Source: an uncultured Spirochaetota bacterium
GTDB lineage: Bacteria > Spirochaetota > Spirochaetia > SZUA-6 > CAVTHK01
DNA: 64,000 nucleotides
Assembly (NCBI GenBank): GCA_963734495.1
Contig: CAVTHK010000011.1
Span: 736,001-800,000, forward strand
Direction of reading: 5' to 3'
This document shows, piece after piece, positions 25,159-54,434 of this stretch (position 1 is its first letter; the number at the start of each line of letters is the position of its first letter). A program made the translations under genes and the position numbers. Under the pieces are notes generated by a model, which worked only from the letters and a program-made list of their open reading frames with translations, searched no databases and was not told where the DNA came from.

Positions 25159-26747
25159 GTGATGGGGCGCGGCAGAACGGGGGCGCCGCCGAGCGGCGGC
25201 AGTTCGACCTGCTGGTCATCGGCAGCGGCATCGCGGGGCTCACGGCGGCGATCAGCGCCGCCGAGCGCGGCCTGTCCGTCGCCGTGGTCTCCAAGGAAGA
25301 CGCGCTGCGGGACACCAACACCCGCTGGGCGCAGGGGGGGATCGTCGGAAGGGGAGAGCAGGACTCGCCGGAGCTCCTGGTGCAGGACATCATGGCGGCC
25401 GGCGACCAGGTCGGGTGCCTCGACGCGGTGCGCCTGCTCGCCGACGAGGCCCCCGCCATGGTCGACCGTTTCCTCGCCGAGAAGATTGGCGTGGCCTTTT
25501 CGCGCGAGCCCGGCGGGGCGATCGACCTCACGATGGAGGCGGCCCACTCCGTGCGCCGCATCTACCACGCCATGGACCACACGGGCGAGGCGATCGAGAC
25601 GGCTCTGCTGCGCTACCTGGCCGGCGTCCGCGGCGTGCAGACCCTTACCGGACACACCGCGATCGACCTCGTCACGAACACGCACAACTCGACCGATGCG
25701 CAGGAACGGTACAAGGGCACGCGCGTCATCGGCGCGTACGTGCTCGACAACTCCACGGCCGCGGTGCGCGTGTTCTTCGCCCCGACCGTAGTGCTCGCCA
25801 CCGGCGGGGTCGGGAACCTGTACCTGCACACCTCGAACCCCGTGGGCGCCACGGGCGACGGGGTGGCCATGGCGCACCGCATCGGCGCCGAGGTGCTCAA
25901 CGCCGAGTACATCCAGTTCCACCCGACGATCCTCTACCACAAGGACGTCAAGCGCTTCCTCATCTCGGAGTCGCTGCGCGGCGAAGGGGCGCGCCTCTCG
26001 AATCAGCGCGGCGAGTTCTTCATGGACCGTTACGCGCCCGAGGAGCGCGACCTCGCCAGCCGCGACAAGGTCGCCCGCGCGATCTACGCGGAGATGGAGA
26101 ACGAGAACTCGGAATACGTCAGGCTCGACGCGCGCACCATCAAGGGGATGTCGGTCGAAGAGCGCTTTCCGCTGATCTTCAGCACTTGCCTCGAGCTGGG
26201 GATCGACATGCGCAAGGAGCCGATTCCGGTCGTGCCCGCCGCGCACTACTTCTGCGGCGGCATCAAGGTCGATCTCGAAGGCCGCACCTCCATCCCGGGC
26301 CTGTACGCGGTCGGCGAGTGTTCCTGCACCGGGGTCCACGGCGCCAACCGCCTGGCCTCCGTCTCGCTGCTCGAGGGGCTGTACTGGGGCGCGCGCATCG
26401 GGCTTCACGCGGTCCGCGGCGAGGTCGATCCCCGTCTCCAGGCCGCGACGCCCGACTGGTTCTATCCGAAGGACGAAGAGGTGTTCGACCCGGTGCTCGT
26501 GAACCAGGATTTCCGCACGATCCAGTCCACGATGTGGAACTACGCGGGGATCATTCGCACCGCGAAGCGCCTTCAGAGGGCGCTCGCCGACCTGAACTAC
26601 CTCACGCACCGCATCGAGCAGTTCTACCGGGAGGCGAAGCTCACGCGCGGCATCATCGAGCTGCGCAACGGCGTCGTCGCCGCGGAGCTCATCGTGCAGG
26701 CGGCCCTGGCCAACCGGGTGTCGCGAGGCTGCCACTACATCGAGTAG
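25155..26747 (+). CDS. nadB: L-aspartate oxidase
   Basis: GSGIAG, WAQGG, EAAHS, QFHPT, ESLRGEG, HGANRLAS, SRGCHY; adjacent to nadC. Confidence 0.92.
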   Translation: MSDGARQNGGAAERRQFDLLVIGSGIAGLTAAISAAERGLSVAVVSKEDALRDTNTRWAQGGIVGRGEQDSPELLVQDIMAAGDQVGCLDAVRLLADEAPAMVDRFLAEKIGVAFSREPGGAIDLTMEAAHSVRRIYHAMDHTGEAIETALLRYLAGVRGVQTLTGHTAIDLVTNTHNSTDAQERYKGTRVIGAYVLDNSTAAVRVFFAPTVVLATGGVGNLYLHTSNPVGATGDGVAMAHRIGAEVLNAEYIQFHPTILYHKDVKRFLISESLRGEGARLSNQRGEFFMDRYAPEERDLASRDKVARAIYAEMENENSEYVRLDARTIKGMSVEERFPLIFSTCLELGIDMRKEPIPVVPAAHYFCGGIKVDLEGRTSIPGLYAVGECSCTGVHGANRLASVSLLEGLYWGARIGLHAVRGEVDPRLQAATPDWFYPKDEEVFDPVLVNQDFRTIQSTMWNYAGIIRTAKRLQRALADLNYLTHRIEQFYREAKLTRGIIELRNGVVAAELIVQAALANRVSRGCHYIE

Positions 26748-45643: not shown

Positions 45644-46310
45644 TCGCGACGGGCTCCAGGTCCCACACGACGTCCTCGCCGCGCTGCTCCAGGCGCACCG
45701 GGCGGAACCGCAGCGCTCTCGCGAGATCGTCGATGCCGAGATCCGCGACCGCGGGCACGCCGGCGCCGATCACGAGAGGCGCCGTGACGATCAGCAGCCG
45801 GTCCACGAGCCCGGACCTCAGGAAGGCCGTGATCACGGAGCTGCCCCCCTCGACAAAGAGAGTCCCGATCCCGCGGGCGGACAGCGCCTCGAGCGCGGGC
45901 CCCAGGGCGACGCCGCCGCCCCCGCCCGGCCCCGCGGCCCGCTCGGCAGCGATCACCTCGACCCCGAGACGCCGCAGCCGCTCGACCTTCGCGGCATCGG
46001 GGGCGAGCGAAAACACGACCGTCGCGTACCGGTCCGCGCTCCGCGCGATCCGACCGTCCTCAGGCAGCCGCAGGCGCGAATCGAGGACGACGCGCACCGG
46101 CGAAGAGCAGCCGGGGAGGCGGCAGGTGAGGAGGGGGTCGTCGCGGAGGACCGTGCCGATGCCCACGAGGATCGCATCGTTGTCCCGCCGCAATTCCTGG
46201 GCGAGCTCGAGCGTCCCGGGGCCGGAGATCCACTGCGACTGGCCGGTCCGCGTGGCAATCCGCCCGTCGAGACTCTGCGCATAACTTACCGTGACGCGCG
46301 GCCGGCCCAT
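45636..46310 (-). CDS. RibD C-terminal (reductase) domain protein
   Basis: YAQSLDGRIA, WISG, AILVGIGTVLRDDP.LT.R, VEGG. Confidence 0.87.
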   Translation of the reverse strand: MGRPRVTVSYAQSLDGRIATRTGQSQWISGPGTLELAQELRRDNDAILVGIGTVLRDDPLLTCRLPGCSSPVRVVLDSRLRLPEDGRIARSADRYATVVFSLAPDAAKVERLRRLGVEVIAAERAAGPGGGGGVALGPALEALSARGIGTLFVEGGSSVITAFLRSGLVDRLLIVTAPLVIGAGVPAVADLGIDDLARALRFRPVRLEQRGEDVVWDLEPVANG

Positions 46311-46368
46311 CTTACCACTATACGTACGCGGTTTGCCGGCGGGCAAGCTCGCAGGCTATCCTTGCCTG

Positions 46369-47451
46369 ATGGGGTCGATCGCCCTGCCGAAACCGCTGCT
46401 CAAGCGCTGGCACCTCGCGCTGGCCGTCTCCATTGCGGCCTGCGCGGCTGTCGCGGCGGCCGTGAGCCCGGCACTCGGCGGCGAGGCGGTGATGCTGCGG
46501 GCGGGGCTGGTGTTCGCCGGGGCGGCCTGGCTGCTCGCGAGCTGTCGGCTGCACCTGAGGGACAACCGGGGCCCGGGAGGGGCGCTCTACGAGAGCCTCG
46601 GGCCTGCGAACCGGCTGACCCTGGCGCGCGGCCTGGCTGTGGCGGCGCTCGCGGCGTTCTATTTGACGCCGGGCCGCGGCGGTTTCGTGGACTGGCTCCC
46701 GGCCCTGCTGTACGCGGCGGTCGTCGCCGGCGACTACCTCGACGGCCTGATCGCGCGCCGTTCCGCGCGACTCACGCGGCTGGGCGAGCGCCTCGACACC
46801 GAGGTCGATGCCCTCGGCGTGCTCTTCGCTTCGGCGCTCGCGGTCTCGCGGCAGGCCCTGCCGCCGTGGTTCCTGCTGGTCGGCTTTGCCCGCTACCTGT
46901 GGGTGCTCACGCTGGCGCTGCGGCGCCGCCTGGGCGGCAGAGTCGTCTCCATATCCGGCACGGCAAGCGGCCGCTTTCTCGCGGGCGCGATGATGGGCCT
47001 CCTCACGGCCGCGCTCGCGCCCGCGGTCTCGCGGCAGCGGCTCGCGATCGCGGCCGTCGTGTTCGCCGTCCCGTTCCTGGCCGGCTTCGCGCGCGACTGG
47101 CTGCGGGCAGCGGACATCGTCCCGGAGAGCTCGTCGCTGTACCGCGGCGCGGCGCGCATCGGGCGGCTCGTCCTGGACTGGCTGCCGCTGCCCCTGCGCG
47201 CCGCGTCAGCCGCGGCGCTGGCGGCGCTCGCGTGGGCCTCGGCCCCGCTGATGGCCGCGCCGGCGCTCGCGCTGCTGCTCGGCGCCGCGGGGCGGGCGGC
47301 CGCGCTGGCCCTGGTCCTTCTCTCCGCCCTGCGACTCATACCGCTCGACGGGGCGGCGCTGGCGGGAGTGCTGTCTCTGCTGATCCTCGGAACAGGCAGG
47401 TGGTCCGTTTGGTCGCCGGAGCGCAGGCTGTTCGCAAGAAACGCTGGCTGA
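46369..47451 (+). CDS. CDP-alcohol phosphatidyltransferase family protein
   Basis: ANRLTLAR, DYLDGLIARR...T.LGERLDTEVD motif. Confidence 0.85.
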   Translation: MGSIALPKPLLKRWHLALAVSIAACAAVAAAVSPALGGEAVMLRAGLVFAGAAWLLASCRLHLRDNRGPGGALYESLGPANRLTLARGLAVAALAAFYLTPGRGGFVDWLPALLYAAVVAGDYLDGLIARRSARLTRLGERLDTEVDALGVLFASALAVSRQALPPWFLLVGFARYLWVLTLALRRRLGGRVVSISGTASGRFLAGAMMGLLTAALAPAVSRQRLAIAAVVFAVPFLAGFARDWLRAADIVPESSSLYRGAARIGRLVLDWLPLPLRAASAAALAALAWASAPLMAAPALALLLGAAGRAAALALVLLSALRLIPLDGAALAGVLSLLILGTGRWSVWSPERRLFARNAG

Positions 47452-48390
47452 GCCGCCTGTTCTGGACGGCCGTGCTCGCCCTCGCCGTGCGCGTGCTCGC
47501 GAGTGTGCCCCTGCCTGCCCTGGCGGCCGTGCTGCGGGGCCTCGACCCGGCGCGTCTGGCGGCGATCCTCGCGGTTGACCTCCTTCTCGTGGCCGCCGCG
47601 CCGGTGCGCCTGTGGCTTCTCTCGCGCGGGGGCGGGACAAAGCTGCCCGTACGTTCCGCTGATCCTCTACCGCCTGGCGTCCTCGGCGGTCAATTACCTC
47701 ACCCCCGGCGCGCAGGTAGGCGGCGAGCCCCTGCAGGCGATGCTGCTTTCGGCGCGCCACGGCATGGCCGCCGCCGAGGCCGCCGGCCTTACCGTGCTCG
47801 CCCGCCTGGTGGATTCCGCGAGCGCCGCGGCGTTCTTCGGCCTCGGCGTCGCGCTTATGGCGGCAGGCCGCGGACCTTCGGCCCTGTTGCCGCTCGCGGC
47901 TGCGCTGGCCCTGCTCGCGGCACCGTTCGCCTACGGGATCGCGCTGCGATCGGGTCGCCGGCCCGCCACCGCGGTTGCCGCGCGGCTGGCCGCCGGGCTC
48001 GCGCGCTTCGCCGCGGGCGTGCGCGATACCGAGGAGGCGCTTGCGGTCCTCTGCGCTCGGAAGCCCGCAGCCATCGCGCGGGCGCTCGCAGCCTCCGCCC
48101 TCCTGTGGGTGCCGGTCGTGCTCGAGTACAGGCTGCTGCTGGCCGCGCTCGGCCTTCACCTCGATCTGCGCGCGTCGATCGAGGCGCTCACGCTCGCGCG
48201 CGCGGCTCTGCTCGCCCCTATCCCCGGAGCGGTCGCCGTTCTGGAGGCTGCACAGGTCGTCGGGCTGCGGCGGCTGGGCGAGTCCGCGGCGAGCGGCCTG
48301 GCCCTGGGGCTCCTGATCCGCGCGCGCGACCTGTTTTTCGTGCTGCCCGGCCTCGCGGCCGCGCGGCTGCTGCGCCCGAGGCGCCCATAG
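47430..48390 (+). CDS. Lysylphosphatidylglycerol-synthase TM / flippase-like membrane protein (start uncertain; frameshift near 47650)
   Basis: NYLTPGAQVGGE, P.PG...LE motifs; hydrophobic. Confidence 0.7.
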
Positions 48391-48451: not shown

Positions 48452-49566
48452 ATGGTCACCCGCGAGATGATCCGCCAGCTGCCGAAGGTGGAGCTCCACG
48501 ACCACCTCGACGGCAGCGTGAGGGCTTCCACGATCGTCGAGCTCGCGCGCGAGCAGGGCGTCGAGCTGCCCGCGCGGGACCCCGCCGCTCTCGCCGAGTG
48601 GTTCCACCGGGGCGCGGATCGCAAGAGCCTCAAGCTGTACCTCGAGGGGTTCGGCGTGACCGTCTCCGTGATGCAGACCGAGGAGGCGTTGGAGCGCGTC
48701 GCGCGCGAGGCGATCGAGGACCTGGCGGCGGACCACGTGATGTACGCGGAGGTCCGCTTCGCCCCGATGCTGCACCTCGGCGCGCGGGCTGAACCTGGAG
48801 CGCGTCGTGCTCGCCGTGCTGCGGGGCCTCGAGGCGGGGCGCGCCGCGACCGGGCACCGACTTCGGTCTGATCCTGTCCTCGCTGCGCGACCAGCAGGTC
48901 TCGCTGGAGACCGCCGAGCTGGCCGTCGCCTTCCGCGACAAGGGGGTGGTGGCGTTCGACCTCGCCGGCGACGAGTACGGGCACCCGCCCAAGCGCCACC
49001 TCGACGCCTTCGAGTACATCCGCAGCAAGAACTTCAACATCACGATCCACGCCGGCGAGGCGTTCGGCATGGAGAGCATCTGGCAGGCGCTGCAGATCTG
49101 CGGCGCGCACCGCATCGGGCACGCGACGCGGCTGCGCGAGGACATGGTGGTGAGCGGCACGCGGATCGTGCAGATGGGGACGCTCGCCCAGTTCATCCTG
49201 GACAAGCGGGTGCCCATGGAGATGTGCCTGTCCTCGAACGTGCAGACCGGCGCCGCCGAGTCGCTCGACGCCCACCCGTTCCCGCTGTACTACCGGAACA
49301 ACTTCCGCGTGTTCCTCTGCACGGACAACCGGCTGATGAGCGACACCACGCTGAGCCGCGAGATGGAGCTCGCGGTCAAGCACTACAACCTGACGCTCGA
49401 GGATCTCGAGAAGATCACGATCAACGCCATGAAGAGCGCGTTTGCGCACCACGACGAGCGCATCCGGATCATCTACGACGTGCTCAAGCCCCGCTTCGCG
49501 CGCATGAGGCAGGAGATCACATCGCTTGCCGTGACCGCAAGGCCAGGCTTGCTGACCGAAGATTAG
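48452..49566 (+). CDS. add: Adenosine deaminase (frameshifts near 48785 and 48860)
   Basis: LPKVELHDHLDG, YAEVRFAP, FDLAGDE, HAGE, RIGH, SSNVQT, TDN. Confidence 0.9.
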
Positions 49567-49837
49567 GCTCGCCTGACCGGGGAAGCCGCCGGGGGCGCCA
49601 TCTCCGGCCTCCGCAACCTCCGCGCTGAGATCGTGGTCATTGGGGTCGATTTGCGGTTGCCCCGGCCGGGGCGGAGCGGGCGGGGTCGGACAGCGGGCCG
49701 CTTCTGTCTCGACAGAGTCGGCCGGCCAGTGCTATATTGGCCCGGCTTTGACTGGCACGCCCCTCACCGTGAATTCTCAGCGGAGCCGCCGTTGCGGCCT
49801 CGAAGCATAGCCTGATCACCAACTTCCGGAGGTAACC

Positions 49838-52800
49838 ATGCCTGAGGTCGCCCAGAAAAGGACTCAGGTAGCCACCTTCCTCGACCTTTACCGATCCATG
49901 AGGACGACGCGCGCGGTGGAGGCGCTGGAGCAGGACTTTACCCGCAGGGGCGAAGCCTTCTTCTACGTCTCGTGCGCCGGCCACGAAGCGGCCGCGACGC
50001 TCGCGCCTCATCTCATCGAAGAGGACTGGCTCCAGGCCCACTACCGCGACAAGGCGCTGCTTCTGGCGCGCGGCATGAGCGTCGAGACGCTCTTTCTCGC
50101 CCTGTTCGCCAAGGACGCCTCCGAGTCCCGCGGCCGCGCCATGAACGCGATCATGAGCGACGCGGACCACCGCGTCATGGGCATGCCCGGGCGCGGTGGG
50201 CAGCGGCGGGCTGCACGCGTGCGGCGTCGCCGAGACGATCAAGGCCGACCCGGCGCGGCCGATCGTCTACTGCTCCGTCGGCGACGGCACGAGCCAGCAG
50301 GGCGAGATGCTCGAGGCGATCCTCACGTCGGCTGCGCGCGAGCTGCCGGTGCTCTGGGTCGTGCAGGACAACGGGCTCGCGATCTCCACGCGCACCAGCG
50401 GGCCGCACCTTCTTCTCGCTGCCGAGCGGGCGACCAGGACGTCTTCTGCGGCATCCCGATCCGCCGCATCGACGGCCACGACATCATCGGCGCCTACCGC
50501 GCCTACGGCGAGATCGTCGACGAGATGCGCGAGACGCGCAAGCCCGCCATCGTGATCCTGCGCGTGGAGCGGCTGGACAGCCACAGCAACGCCGACGATC
50601 AGACCCTCTACCGCACCGCCGAGGAGATCGATGAGGTGCGCCAGACCGCCGACCCCCTCGCGCTCTTCGAGGAGAGCCTCGAGGGGCTGGGCGTCAAGCG
50701 GCAGGAGCTCGAGCGGATCAAGGCCGAGATCGCCGAGCAGGTCAAGAGCGACGCGCTGCGCGCCCAGCGCAGCGGCGGACCCCTTCGCGACGTTCCACGC
50801 CAAGAAGGAGCTGCCCCGCGATCTCGAGGACCCGCCGCCGCGAGTACCGCGGCGACGCGAGCGAGCCGAGGTTCACGATGCTCGAGGCGGTGCGCGAGCT
50901 CTTCCGCAAGCGCATGCAGCGCGACAAGCGCATCGTCATGTTCGGCGAGGACCTCGAGGACCCCAAGGGCGACGTCTTCGGCCTCACCCGCGGGCTGACC
51001 GAGGCCTATCCCGGCCGCGTGCGCAACTCGCCGCTCTCCGAGTCGACGATCATCGGCTTCTCGGTCGGCGAGGCGCTGGCCGGCCGCAGGCCGATCGCCT
51101 TCCTTCAATTCGCCGACTTCCTCCCGCTCGCCTTCAACCAGATCACCACCGAGCTCGCCACCATGTACTGGCGCACCGACGGCCGCTACCAGGCGCCGGT
51201 CATCGTGATGGCGACCACCGGCGGCTACAAGCCCGGCCTCGGGCCGTTCCACGCGAGCAGCATGGAGTCGTACGCCGTCCACACTCCCGGGCGTCGACGT
51301 GTTCGAGCCGAGCACCGCGGCCGACGCGGTCGGGCCTGCTCAACGCGGCGATGCAGTCGGGGCGGCCGACGATCTTCTTCTACCCCAAGAACCTCGCTCA
51401 ACGACCGCGAGAACACGACGAGCGCCGACGTCGAGCGCCAGCTCGTTCCGATCGGCAAGGCGCGCATCGTGGAGAAGGGCGACGACATCACGCTCGTCGG
51501 CTGGGGCAACGCCGATGCCCATGTGCCGCAAGGCCGCGGCGGCCCTGCGCGGCGTCGGCTACGGCGCGGAAGTGATCGACCTGCGCAGTCTCTCGCCCTG
51601 GGACGAGCAGGCGGTGCTCGCCAGCGCCGAGCGCACCGGGCGACTCATGATCGTGCACGAGGAGAACCTCACCTGCGGCTTCGGCGCGGAGATCGCGGCC
51701 ACGGTGGCCGAAAAGGCCCGCGTCGCGGTGCTGGTCAGGCGCGTGACGCGCCCCGACACGTTCGTCCCTTCAACTTCGCCAACCAGCTCGAGGTGCTGCC
51801 GGGCTTCAAGCGCACGCTCGAAGAAGCCGCGGCCATGCTGGGCGCGGAGGTGAGCTGGCAGGCCCCGCCCAAGGCGGAGAGCCGGCGTCTTCCTCATCGA
51901 GGCGATCGGCTCGAGCCCTTCCGACGAGTCGGTCACGGTGCTCGACTGGCAGGTCAAGGCCGGCGACAAGATCGAGGCCGGAGCGATCGTCGCCAATCTC
52001 GAGGCGGACAAGGCGGTGCAGGAGCTCTCTTCGCCCGTGCAGGGCGTGGTGGCTCGAGCTGCTCGTGCCCGCGGGCGAGATGGTCAAGGTGGGCACGCCG
52101 CTCGCGAAGATCAAGACCGCCGAAGGCGGCGATGCCGCGCTCAAGCCCGTCTCGCGCGAGGAGCCGGGCACTCCCATCATCACCAAGGGGAAGGCGCCCG
52201 CCGCCGCCCGCGGCGCGTGCCTCGGCCGTCGCCGCGGTTCCTGCCGCGGGCGAAGCGCCGGCCGCCGAATCCAGGCGGGAGACGGCGGTCGAGATCGGGC
52301 TCGCCGGCGTCGAGGTGGCGACCGGGTCGCGCAAGGTGTCCAACGACGAGATCGCGGCCAAGTGCCCCGACTGGACGGCGGGCGAGATCCTCAAGCGCGT
52401 CGGCATCGAGAGCCGCTACTGGGTGGGCGAGGGCGAGACGGTCGTGACCCTCGGCGCGAAGGCCGCGCGCAAGCTGCTCGCGGCGCAGGGGCTCACGATC
52501 CGCGACATCGACCTGCTGATCGCGACCACGGGGACGCCGCCGACCACGACGCCGTCGACCGCGGCGCTCATCCTGCACGACCTGTCCGAGGGAGCCTCCG
52601 ACATCTACGTGCAGGCGCACGACATCAACGCCGCCTGCTCGGGCTACCTCTACGGGCTGCAGGCCGCCTACGACTACCTGTACACGCGGCCCGACAGGCG
52701 CGTCGCTGCTCGTGACGACGGAGACGCTCTCGCTGCGCACCGACCCGGCCGACCCGTCGACGGCGCCGATCTTCGGCGACGCCGCGACCGCGACGCTGCG

Positions 52801-53252
52801 TCGTGACCGCCGGCGGCAAGCAGAAGCTCCGCGCGCGCCTCTGGCCCCCGGCGCTCTCGGCCAAGGGCGAGGACGGGACGATCCTGCGCGTGCCCAACCA
52901 GGACGGGAGCTTCATCTACATGGACGGGCCCAAGGTGTTCCTCGAGGCGATCAAGGGCATGATCATGATGCTCGAGCAGGCCTGCGCCATCGCGGGCAAG
53001 ACGCTCGCCGACCTGGCGCTCGTGGTCCCGCACCAGGCCAACCAGCGCATCATCAACGCCGTGGCCATGAAGCTCAAGGCGCCGAAGGGGCTGCTCTACA
53101 GCAACATCCGGGAGTACGGCAACACCTCTTCGAGCACGATCCCGATCTGCCTGGCGAAGCTGCTCGGCGAGCGCAAGAGCGGCGAGCTGCTCGGGCTCAC
53201 CGCCTTCGGCGGCGGGTTCACGTTCGGCGGGGCGGTCATCCAGATCGTGTAG
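49838..53252 (+). CDS. Fused 2-oxoacid dehydrogenase E1alpha-E1beta, lipoyl domain and beta-ketoacyl-ACP synthase III (many frameshifts)
   Basis: GHE/HYRD, GDG...DN TPP motif, HSNADD, GED..GDVF, NSPLSE, QFADF, GPFH, EADKA lipoyl site, NAACSG, HQAN, GNT, AFGGG; single RBS/ATG at 49838. Confidence 0.8.
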
Positions 53253-53308
53253 TCGCGCAGACCGGGGCGGCGCCGGCTCCGCGGGCGGCGCCGCCTTCGC
53301 ACTCCAGG

Positions 53309-53755
53309 TCAGTTGCCCGGCGAGTATCGCACGTTGCCGGTGTAGCTCACCATCCACCCGATCCCGAATTTGTCGACGCACATGCCGTACTTTTCGGCCC
53401 ACTGCGTCTTCTGCAGCGGCATCTCGGGCTTCCCGCCCGCCGAGAGGCCTTTGAACACCCTTTCCGCTTCGGTCTCGTTGTCAGCCTCGAGGGCGATATA
53501 GAAGTTGTTCCCGGCCTTGACGGGGCGCTTCTGGGACTCGAGGATATCCGATCCCATGAGGATGTTGCCGTTGCCGATGGGCAGGGCGACGTGCATGATC
53601 TTGTCCAGCTCTTTGGCCGGGACCTTCATCGCCTCGCCGCCGGAGTCCTTGAATGTGATCAGGGCGTTGAACTCCCCGCCGAACACGGACTTATAGAACG
53701 TGAAGGCCTCCCGGGTGTTCCCGTGGAAATTGAGGTACGGGTTCGCTACCTTCAT
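53309..53755 (-). CDS. VOC/PhnB-family protein
   Basis: PYLNF.G...EA..FY, IMH, MGSD, DKFGIGWM. Confidence 0.88.
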   Translation of the reverse strand: MKVANPYLNFHGNTREAFTFYKSVFGGEFNALITFKDSGGEAMKVPAKELDKIMHVALPIGNGNILMGSDILESQKRPVKAGNNFYIALEADNETEAERVFKGLSAGGKPEMPLQKTQWAEKYGMCVDKFGIGWMVSYTGNVRYSPGN

Positions 53756-53903
53756 GGCTGCTCTCCTCGTGCGGATGTCTGCGGCGCCCCTGGGCCGCCC
53801 GAGGCGGCGCGCCACCGTCGTCCGGCTCCGCGGGCGCCAGCCAAAAAGATAACTCCGGCGGTCAGGTTAGGCTACAAGAAGTCGTAAGGGCGCACGGGGG
53901 CGA

Positions 53904-54434
53904 CTACCCGCGCGGCGACACTTCCCACGCCCTGAGGTTCTCGCTGCTCCACTTGAGCGACAGCGGGGGAAGCTCCACGGCGTGGAACTCCGGGCCGATG
54001 GCCCTCCGGACCGGGTCGGTGACCTTGATGCCCGGCAGACGGTTGAGCACGGCCGCGTGCGCCACGGTCTCGCCCATCACGTCGTCGACCCTGAGAGACT
54101 TGTGGCCGAAGATGCCGCGAGTGACCTCGCCGCTGCTGACAGCGGCGCCCAACTCGGCCACCTGCACGATCTCGTAGCTCTCGACAAGCGCCGCGAAGTC
54201 CTTGCGCATCCGCACGGCGCATCGGACGGCTTCGTTTTCCCTGCCGCGCGGAAACACGCAGAGCATCGCGTCGCCGATGTACTTCAGGATCGAGCCGCCG
54301 TTGTCCACGACGGCGGTGCCGGCCTTCTCGTAGAACTTCTGGACAAAGGCGGGCATCCGCTTCCCCAGCGCGACGCTCAGGCGCATGAAGCCCCTGATGT
54401 CGCAGAAGAGAACGACGAGGGACACTTTCTTCAT
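53904..54434 (-). CDS. Stand-alone class III nucleotide cyclase domain
   Basis: FCDIRGF, KYIGDA, DVMGETV. Confidence 0.75.
   Translation of the reverse strand: MKKVSLVVLFCDIRGFMRLSVALGKRMPAFVQKFYEKAGTAVVDNGGSILKYIGDAMLCVFPRGRENEAVRCAVRMRKDFAALVESYEIVQVAELGAAVSSGEVTRGIFGHKSLRVDDVMGETVAHAAVLNRLPGIKVTDPVRRAIGPEFHAVELPPLSLKWSSENLRAWEVSPRG

Follow-up and report, generated by a model that had tools for sequence, protein, structure and literature searches.

The window analysed here is a stretch of 64,000 nucleotides (nt), about 70% in guanine + cytosine (G+C), from the genome of an uncultured Spirochaetota bacterium (GCA_963734495.1, contig CAVTHK010000011.1, positions 736,001 to 800,000 of the forward strand). 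The subject is a gene at 49838-53252 of this window, in which the α and β parts of a 2-oxoacid dehydrogenase E1 component, a lipoyl domain and a FabH-type β-ketoacyl-acyl carrier protein synthase III (KAS III) follow one another. The locus is probably one functional gene, as judged from its sequence, and its product is about 1,130 residues long. Three-frame translation of 49700-53400 gives one plus-strand reading path which jumps between frames, and its features are given below. The module bounds are taken partly from tblastn on locus L001 (L001 coordinate + 48337 = window coordinate), and residues of the fusion protein are numbered throughout as in P0001, the protein of an intact orthologue described in the next section.

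49709-49738, plus strand: promoter-like site TCGACA-18-TATATT with TG ahead of the second hexamer; distance to the start codon about 100 nt
49828-49833, plus strand: Shine-Dalgarno sequence GGAGGT, read directly from the sequence, with the four-base spacer AACC to the ATG at 49838
49838, plus strand: start codon ATG, read from the sequence
49838-53252, plus strand: whole gene (E1α-E1β-lipoyl-linker-KAS III), about 1,130 codons after discounting assembly indels, stop codon at 53250-53252
49838-50785, plus strand: E1α module (E1_dh; Pfam and tblastn), thiamine pyrophosphate (TPP) motif running from GDG at 50280 to N
50857-51834, plus strand: E1β module (Transket_pyr and Transketolase_C; Pfam and tblastn)
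51887-52124, plus strand: lipoyl domain (Pfam, tblastn and translation), lipoyl-lysine codon of EADKA at 52010-52012
52140-52181, plus strand: conserved linker motif LKP[IV][TS]RE[ED]PGxP[VI]I directly after the lipoyl domain, P0001 residues 767-780
52182-52278, plus strand: variable Ala/Gly/Ser-rich linker, holding an in-frame 21-nt indel at 52234-52254
52279-53249, plus strand: KAS III domain of FabH type; codons of the active-site Cys, His and Asn at 52636, 53031 and 53121, respectively; at positions of E. coli FabH, an acidic residue for Trp32, Pro for Arg151, Thr for Phe87 and Arg kept for Arg249

The promoter-like site is a consensus match only, seen once in the sequence and 0.1 times expected from shuffles. 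The modules are already recognized by Pfam on uninterrupted pieces of the window: E1_dh on three of them (4.2e-10, 1.4e-09 and 1.2e-17), Transket_pyr (7.1e-15) and Transketolase_C (3.8e-21) for E1β, Biotin_lipoyl (3.4e-11) and ACP_syn_III_C (1.3e-23), with ACP_syn_III falling under its Pfam cut-off on a short piece (6.8e-04). A preliminary description of the locus, made from the sequence alone, had placed the TPP motif, the lipoyl lysine and the Cys, His and Asn of KAS III at 50280, 52010, 52636, 53031 and 53121, respectively, and three-frame translation gives the same positions throughout.

Frameshifts and the intact orthologue

Among 30 relatives, the only full-length DNA match is that of a genome of the same genus (G001), with 84% identity over 3,415 nt. 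Its orthologue is an uninterrupted open reading frame (ORF) of 1128 codons, encoding P0001, and shares the window's neighbours, an adenosine deaminase gene upstream and a cyclase-domain gene downstream, so that the single E1α-E1β-lipoyl-KAS III gene proposed in the preliminary description is one intact ORF in this congener. A global DNA alignment of the window to the G001 gene gives 14 extra bases, one missing base and the in-frame 21-nt linker indel; the frameshifts, put at about a dozen in the preliminary description, number 15, all of them single-base indels. They were placed by DNA alignment; tblastn without composition correction gave the long cross-frame alignments typical of DNA of 70% G+C. 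From the alignment to the intact orthologue they lie as follows.

Near 50189, 50395, 50425, 50774, 50834, 51293, 51331, 51395, 51512, 51882, 52051, 52204, 52704 and 52798, plus strand: one extra base each
Near 51766, plus strand: one missing base

As many as 15 frameshifts within 3.4 kb might mean that the window copy is a decaying pseudogene. However, once the single bases are discounted and the window is read in the G001 frame, the copy has 0 internal stops, and hence none between the domains, which the preliminary description had named as a refuting outcome. Its amino-acid identity to P0001 is 84.5%, and the differences from G001 at codon positions 1, 2 and 3 (127, 79 and 332, respectively) are dominated by third positions, the signature of purifying selection. 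Moreover, the neighbouring genes are equally gapped: over 1,127 nt of the adenosine deaminase gene, the alignment to G001 opens 5 gaps, and this gene (window 48452-49566) is itself split into the ORFs 48452-48871 and 48946-49566 by a like single-base indel. The genome of the window (G000) is 83% complete by marker genes and rich in frameshifts.

The region was also compared with short-read contigs of three DNA metagenomes and of an RNA library. Among the matches listed, the extra base is absent, at the site or within 3 nt of it, at no fewer than 9 of the 14 insertion sites (50192, 50397, 50427, 51286/51293, 51331, 51515, 52051/52054, 52705 and 52798), and for the other five insertion sites and the deletion near 51766 no confirmation is found among them. 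Being 88-100% like the window, these contigs may stem from related strains and are strong but not final proof; the highest share of sampled window words in any sequencing run is 0.19, and the RNA-library pieces (X10) are no proof of transcription. Because of the intact orthologue, the lack of internal stops, the third-position differences and the short-read contigs without the extra bases, the 15 frameshifts are, on this comparison of sequences, errors of an indel-rich assembly and not decay, and a pseudogene is very improbable. The assembly appears to have about one single-base indel per 230 nt, so that many real genes of G000 will look broken.

Modules and conserved residues of the fusion family

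P0001 passes the Pfam cut-offs for all six domains: E1_dh (146.9 bits), Transket_pyr (91.2), Transketolase_C (111.6), Biotin_lipoyl (57.7), ACP_syn_III (67.8) and ACP_syn_III_C (79). No NCBIfam model covers or names the whole protein. All six Pfam domains are found together in 119 of the 120 homologues listed from a large protein collection, which are 52-100% identical, about 1,060-1,230 residues long and mostly from metagenome-assembled genomes of Spirochaetes and from candidate division KSB3. They carry the source names “2-oxoisovalerate dehydrogenase E1 component”, “beta-ketoacyl-ACP synthase 3”, “transketolase” and “thiamine pyrophosphate-dependent enzyme”. In 117-118 full-length members, 221 positions are at least 99% identical, and a second alignment (A1) agrees. 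In the AlphaFold2 model of P0001 all modules are folded (mean pLDDT 91.1, pTM 0.72), with disorder at residues 1-9 and 790-806 only and pLDDT below 50 at 790-806.

In the E1 module, the TPP motif (G150/G152 to N180) is invariant, as are H250 of E1α and E402 and H472 of E1β. Alignment to the E1 of Geobacillus pyruvate dehydrogenase (PDH; 1W85) makes these three residues the equivalents of H271α, E59β and H128β, respectively. One study gives E59β a cofactor-activating role, and H128β and H271α roles in the reductive acetylation of lipoate (PMC2663715). Since these equivalents are conserved, the E1 module looks competent for both half-reactions, decarboxylation and reductive acylation. In addition, its α and β parts are on one chain, unlike the two-polypeptide E1 that docks on a core of the E2 acyltransferase. 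The closest solved relative of both halves is the Thermus 2-oxo acid dehydrogenase E1 (1UM9), which we take to be branched-chain-specific. It scores 114 bits with E1α against 77 for Geobacillus PDH and 71 for human branched-chain 2-oxoacid dehydrogenase (BCKDH), and 215 bits with E1β against 186 and 177. The curated models that name a substrate are not reached (PDH_E1_alph_x, 170.6 vs 411.35; PRK11892, 218.5 vs 454).

In the lipoyl domain, E721, K724 and A725 are at least 99% identical and A722 and D723 at least 90%, and K724 of EADKA is the putative lipoylation site, invariant in the family. Neither an E2 core (2-oxoacid_dh, PF00198) nor an E3-binding domain (PF02817) is among the Pfam matches of P0001 at E <= 0.001. 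The A/G/S-rich linker varies in the family from 20 to 74 residues (median 31). The motif LKP[IV][TS]RE[ED]PGxP[VI]I ahead of it, in which AlphaFold2 predicts a β-strand at residues 777-782, is matched by no Pfam family and might act in docking.

The KAS III domain scores under the curated FabH cut-offs (TIGR00747, 203.7 vs 292.1; NF006829, 241.2 vs 249), which a canonical FabH of the same genus passes with 348.8 and 386.3, respectively. Its closest solved relatives are housekeeping FabHs (E-values 5.8e-44 to about 1e-28). The domains of the family were aligned with E. coli FabH (from NC_000913) and with the canonical FabHs of five carrier genomes, and the counts below refer to 117 distinct fusion sequences at positions of E. 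coli FabH.

Cys112, His244, Asn247 and Asn274: kept in 117/117
Arg249: kept in 117/117
Lys257: Arg or Lys in 116/117
Trp32: Trp in 0/117 (Asp 97, Glu 9, Lys 6, Gly 4, Arg 1)
Arg151: Arg in 0/117 (Pro 73, Tyr 14, Phe 10, others 20)
Asn210: Pro in 102/117
Phe87: Thr in 115/117
Arg36: kept in 101/117

In P0001 numbering, A924, C925 and G927, H1056, Q1057 and N1059, and G1085 and N1086 are at least 99% identical, and the motifs HQAN and GNTSS flanking the triad are invariant. The domain thus resembles the FabHs of E. coli (1HN9/1HND), Aquifex (2EBD) and Mycobacterium tuberculosis (1HZP) in having both Pfam domains, Cys112/His244/Asn274, Arg249, GNTSS and FGGG. It differs from them in scoring under the curated cut-offs, in having Asp or Glu for Trp32 and Pro or other residues for Arg151, and in being fused behind a lipoyl domain. 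All five canonical FabHs of the carrier genomes have Trp32 and Arg151, and Phe or Leu at position 87. The conserved Arg249 is reported to be an acyl carrier protein (ACP)-docking residue (Zhang et al. 2001); basic residues at the funnel are also mentioned in general terms in the FabH literature.

What these positions do is known from other FabHs. In structures of E. coli FabH with coenzyme A (CoA), the adenine is stacked between Trp32 and Arg151, and Arg36 touches the phosphopantetheine part of CoA (PMC4606726). Phe87 limits the E. coli enzyme to acetyl-CoA and Thr opens the pocket of M. tuberculosis FabH, according to two reports (PMC3734052, PMC12625853); the fusion KAS III has Thr for Phe87, as does this long-chain FabH. 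By this pattern, the CoA-adenine site is lost; the catalytic residues remain, as does the basic one at the mouth of the tunnel, and the primer pocket is of the open type. Loss of Trp32 and Arg151 with Arg249 kept fits the prediction of a direct acyl hand-over from the lipoyl arm, and the open pocket argues against acetyl as the primer. The substrate is probably larger than pyruvate, a branched-chain 2-oxoacid being the leading guess.

A proposed acyl route and its alternatives

Bacillus, Staphylococcus and Listeria supply FabH with acyl-CoA primers by the branched-chain 2-oxoacid dehydrogenase complex (E1α/E1β, E2 and E3). The fusion shares with this route a TPP-dependent E1 of heterodimer type that would reductively acylate a lipoyl-lysine, and a Cys-His-Asn KAS III that would start the chain. 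However, it has these on one chain, without E2 core or E3-binding domain and without the CoA-adenine pair. Because both the E2 core and the adenine pair are missing, the acyl-CoA intermediate is probably skipped.

The mechanism proposed is as follows. The fused E1α-E1β would bind thiamine diphosphate and decarboxylate a 2-oxoacid, and would then reductively acylate the lipoyl-lysine of the following domain on the same chain. The S-acyl-dihydrolipoyl arm would swing on the flexible linker and pass its acyl group to the KAS III cysteine (Cys925), standing where acyl-CoA stands in ordinary FabH. KAS III would condense the acyl group with malonyl-ACP to a 3-ketoacyl-ACP, which would enter type II fatty-acid synthesis. 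Finally, the reduced arm would be reoxidised in trans by a dihydrolipoyl dehydrogenase (Lpd) encoded elsewhere. The probability of this mechanism as a whole, from 2-oxoacid through lipoyl arm and KAS III cysteine to 3-ketoacyl-ACP with reoxidation by Lpd, is put at roughly 0.6; within it, we infer the lipoyl-to-cysteine transfer, the malonyl-ACP partner, the substrate class and the reoxidation by Lpd from sequence.

All the parts are known singly, and only the coupling of E1-lipoyl to KAS III is new. Among the closest systems is QncN/QncL/QncM, together with SclQ1-4, in which a thiamine-diphosphate-derived acyl unit on a lipoyl arm is brought into a carrier-protein pathway, bypassing CoA (PMC6335953). 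That system uses an E2-type acyltransferase to ACP and a ketose donor, whereas in the fusion E2 is replaced by a condensing enzyme, a feature found in none of the closest systems. Similarly, in the actinobacterial OdhA/Kgd (E1o-E2o) a 2-oxoacid dehydrogenase E1 is joined on one chain to the enzyme that receives the lipoyl-bound acyl group (PMC10415282). OdhA contains an E2 succinyltransferase core, lacks its own lipoyl domain and makes succinyl-CoA, whereas the fusion has KAS III as the partner and its lipoyl domain in cis. The literature search, with subscription journals and supplements outside its scope, found no description of the fusion, which agrees with the statement in the preliminary description that no characterisation of this architecture was known.

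One paper names three routes of fatty-acid initiation, which depend on FabH together with acyl-CoA, on a malonyl-ACP decarboxylase or, in Pseudomonas putida, on FabB (PMC10869286). We lean slightly towards the view that the family represents a further route, without acyl-CoA or E2, and contains the first condensing enzyme to be loaded by a lipoyl arm. If so, a lipoyl-loaded KAS III would add an initiation route that bypasses the CoA pool, and the catabolism of amino-acid-derived 2-oxoacids would be tied directly to the type of acyl chain in the membrane. It would also be a natural case of substrate channelling from a 2-oxoacid dehydrogenase to fatty-acid synthase, and a lipoyl arm would be serving an enzyme class not known to use one. 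The protein is, in addition, a possible compact engineering part for branched or odd-chain fatty acids.

The fusion does not stand alone in its genomes. A survey of the window genome (G000), its congener G001 and three other carriers found E2 cores (3-4 matches each), a true Lpd adjoining E2 genes, a canonical FabH above the TIGR00747 cut-off and a lipoate/biotin-ligase-family gene in all five, and LipA in three. The window itself holds no E2 core and no true E3 gene, the sole match of the Lpd search in it being a 34-residue FAD motif (25200-25301). The E2 matches of G000 are on contigs C13, C16 and C7 and its Lpd matches above cut-off on C16 and C13, and so the earlier remark that neither gene is nearby applies. 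G001 has a standard PDH operon (E1α, E1β, E2 and Lpd) and two further E2 genes, one of them adjoining an E1α-like gene. Since canonical FabH, E2 cores and Lpd are encoded elsewhere in the carriers, the fusion is best seen as an additional route and not as the sole initiator. In the earlier idea of a CoA-independent primer machine, the single chain is borne out; the machine is not self-sufficient, because its arm needs reoxidation and Lpd is encoded elsewhere, nor is it the sole initiator, because FabH is present in 5/5 carriers.

Several points weigh against the proposed mechanism. Canonical FabH, 3-4 E2 cores and at least one conventional PDH operon are found in all five carriers; the classical acyl-CoA route is thus available and might, in principle, serve the fusion as well. 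Two of the five carrier genomes, G000 and G032, gave no LipA match; the miss in G000 is taken as incompleteness, not absence. The fusion has no E3-binding domain through which Lpd might reach the lipoyl arm, and the scores against solved E1s and the NCBIfam models are compatible with more than one class of E1 substrate. The roles of Trp32, Arg151 and Phe87 are carried over by analogy from other FabHs. Furthermore, a near-invariant Trp (W837 of P0001) a few residues upstream of the Trp32 position might substitute for it.

The E2 cores and Lpd in all five carriers, together with Arg36, a phosphopantetheine contact kept in most of the fusion sequences, are what might be expected if the fusion meant proximity only, with a separate E2 and CoA being used and KAS III taking the released acyl-CoA. 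This is rather improbable, since both adenine-stacking residues are lost in every fusion sequence and kept in the canonical FabHs of the same genomes; moreover, the lipoyl domain is on the chain of E1, never on that of an E2 core, and would need to reach an E2 in trans, and no E2 gene is a conserved neighbour. Another possibility is that KAS III is a surrogate of E2, which moves the lipoyl-bound acyl group on to holo-ACP (or CoA) without condensation. KAS III-like acyltransferases such as DpsC and CerJ exist; they usually show altered triads and carry out no decarboxylative condensation. The fusion differs from such enzymes in its intact, invariant Cys-His-Asn triad with the HQAN and GNTSS motifs, and in condensing KAS III enzymes it is the His and Asn that serve malonyl decarboxylation. 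The movement of a thiamine-diphosphate-derived unit via a lipoyl domain to ACP by QncN/QncL/QncM (PMC6335953) is in favour of a surrogate; with the complete triad against it, transfer without condensation seems improbable as well.

The distribution and the neighbours of the gene bear on a third alternative, in which the fusion provides the starter of a specialised lipid or of a polyketide, using a dedicated carrier or malonyl-CoA as extender, and not that of bulk fatty acids. The distribution within the phylum of the window is patchy: the fusion is found in 6 of 301 sampled genomes, the window's own included, and in 5 of 126 genera. This, the presence of a canonical FabH beside it and the scores under the FabH family cut-offs (TIGR00747, NF006829) would suit a specialised role. 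However, no polyketide, carrier-protein or tailoring gene is conserved beside the 7 genome or 80 metagenome loci, and the best solved relatives are housekeeping FabHs, so this reading is considered unlikely. Recurring neighbours at the 7 genome loci are only seryl-tRNA synthetase, NeuB and aconitase, and these only among three related spirochaetes; those of the 80 metagenome loci, for RND efflux, HlyD and proteins with a peroxiredoxin or a BMC domain, are specific to clades. None of the genes linked to the fusion is one for ACP, E2, E3 or lipoate ligase, or a fab gene. An operon partner is thus not conserved, and the gene has a promoter-like site and a ribosome-binding site of its own.

Occurrence, split forms and neighbouring genes

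In species-representative genomes, the complete fusion is present at 7 loci and an eighth locus has a KAS III fragment; six of these loci belong to Spirochaetales/Spirochaetaceae/Spirochaetota and two to Verrucomicrobiota. The 80 metagenome loci were gathered with the short lipoyl-KAS III forms, and 58 of them include the E1α N-terminus. Among these complete loci, 57/58 are a single stop-free frame, the exception (L152) being interrupted by a single in-frame stop after its lipoyl domain and ahead of KAS III.

Shorter relatives also occur, namely lipoyl + KAS III proteins of 416-491 residues (P0166, P0184, P0167, P0208 and P0214) and KAS III-only proteins of 315-321 residues (P0162 and P0170). 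These have the fusion-type KAS III with an acidic residue at the Trp32 position and are encoded on contigs of 40 kb to 1 Mb; they may represent natural splits of the gene. Moreover, fused E1α-E1β genes are found in many Armatimonadota, Planctomycetes, Verrucomicrobia, Nocardia and alphaproteobacteria (loci L017-L056 except L046 and L052), some of them carrying a lipoyl-like stretch behind. These fusions are without KAS III, and no FabH-like gene is present in their fetched flanks.

Downstream of the fusion gene, the window has a gene for a VOC/glyoxalase-fold protein (53309-53815, minus strand) and a small adenylate/guanylate-cyclase-domain gene (53904-54434, minus strand), the latter being syntenic in G001. 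Upstream, a CDP-alcohol phosphatidyltransferase gene (PF01066) followed by an LPG_synthase_TM gene (PF03706) occupies 46291-48390. A counterpart to these roughly 2 kb is absent from the syntenic place in G001, where L011 positions 8641 and 8663 correspond to window positions 46324 and 48399.

No BMC match is found in the genome of the window. At 14 of the 80 metagenome loci, a tandem BMC-domain gene of the microcompartment shell type directly follows the fusion on the same strand. The encoded proteins are about 210-245 residues long and mutually 65-100% identical; examples are L101:4239-4946 and L120:7271-8005, and the other loci are L116, L119, L122, L124, L126, L127, L129, L131, L133, L136, L140 and L143.

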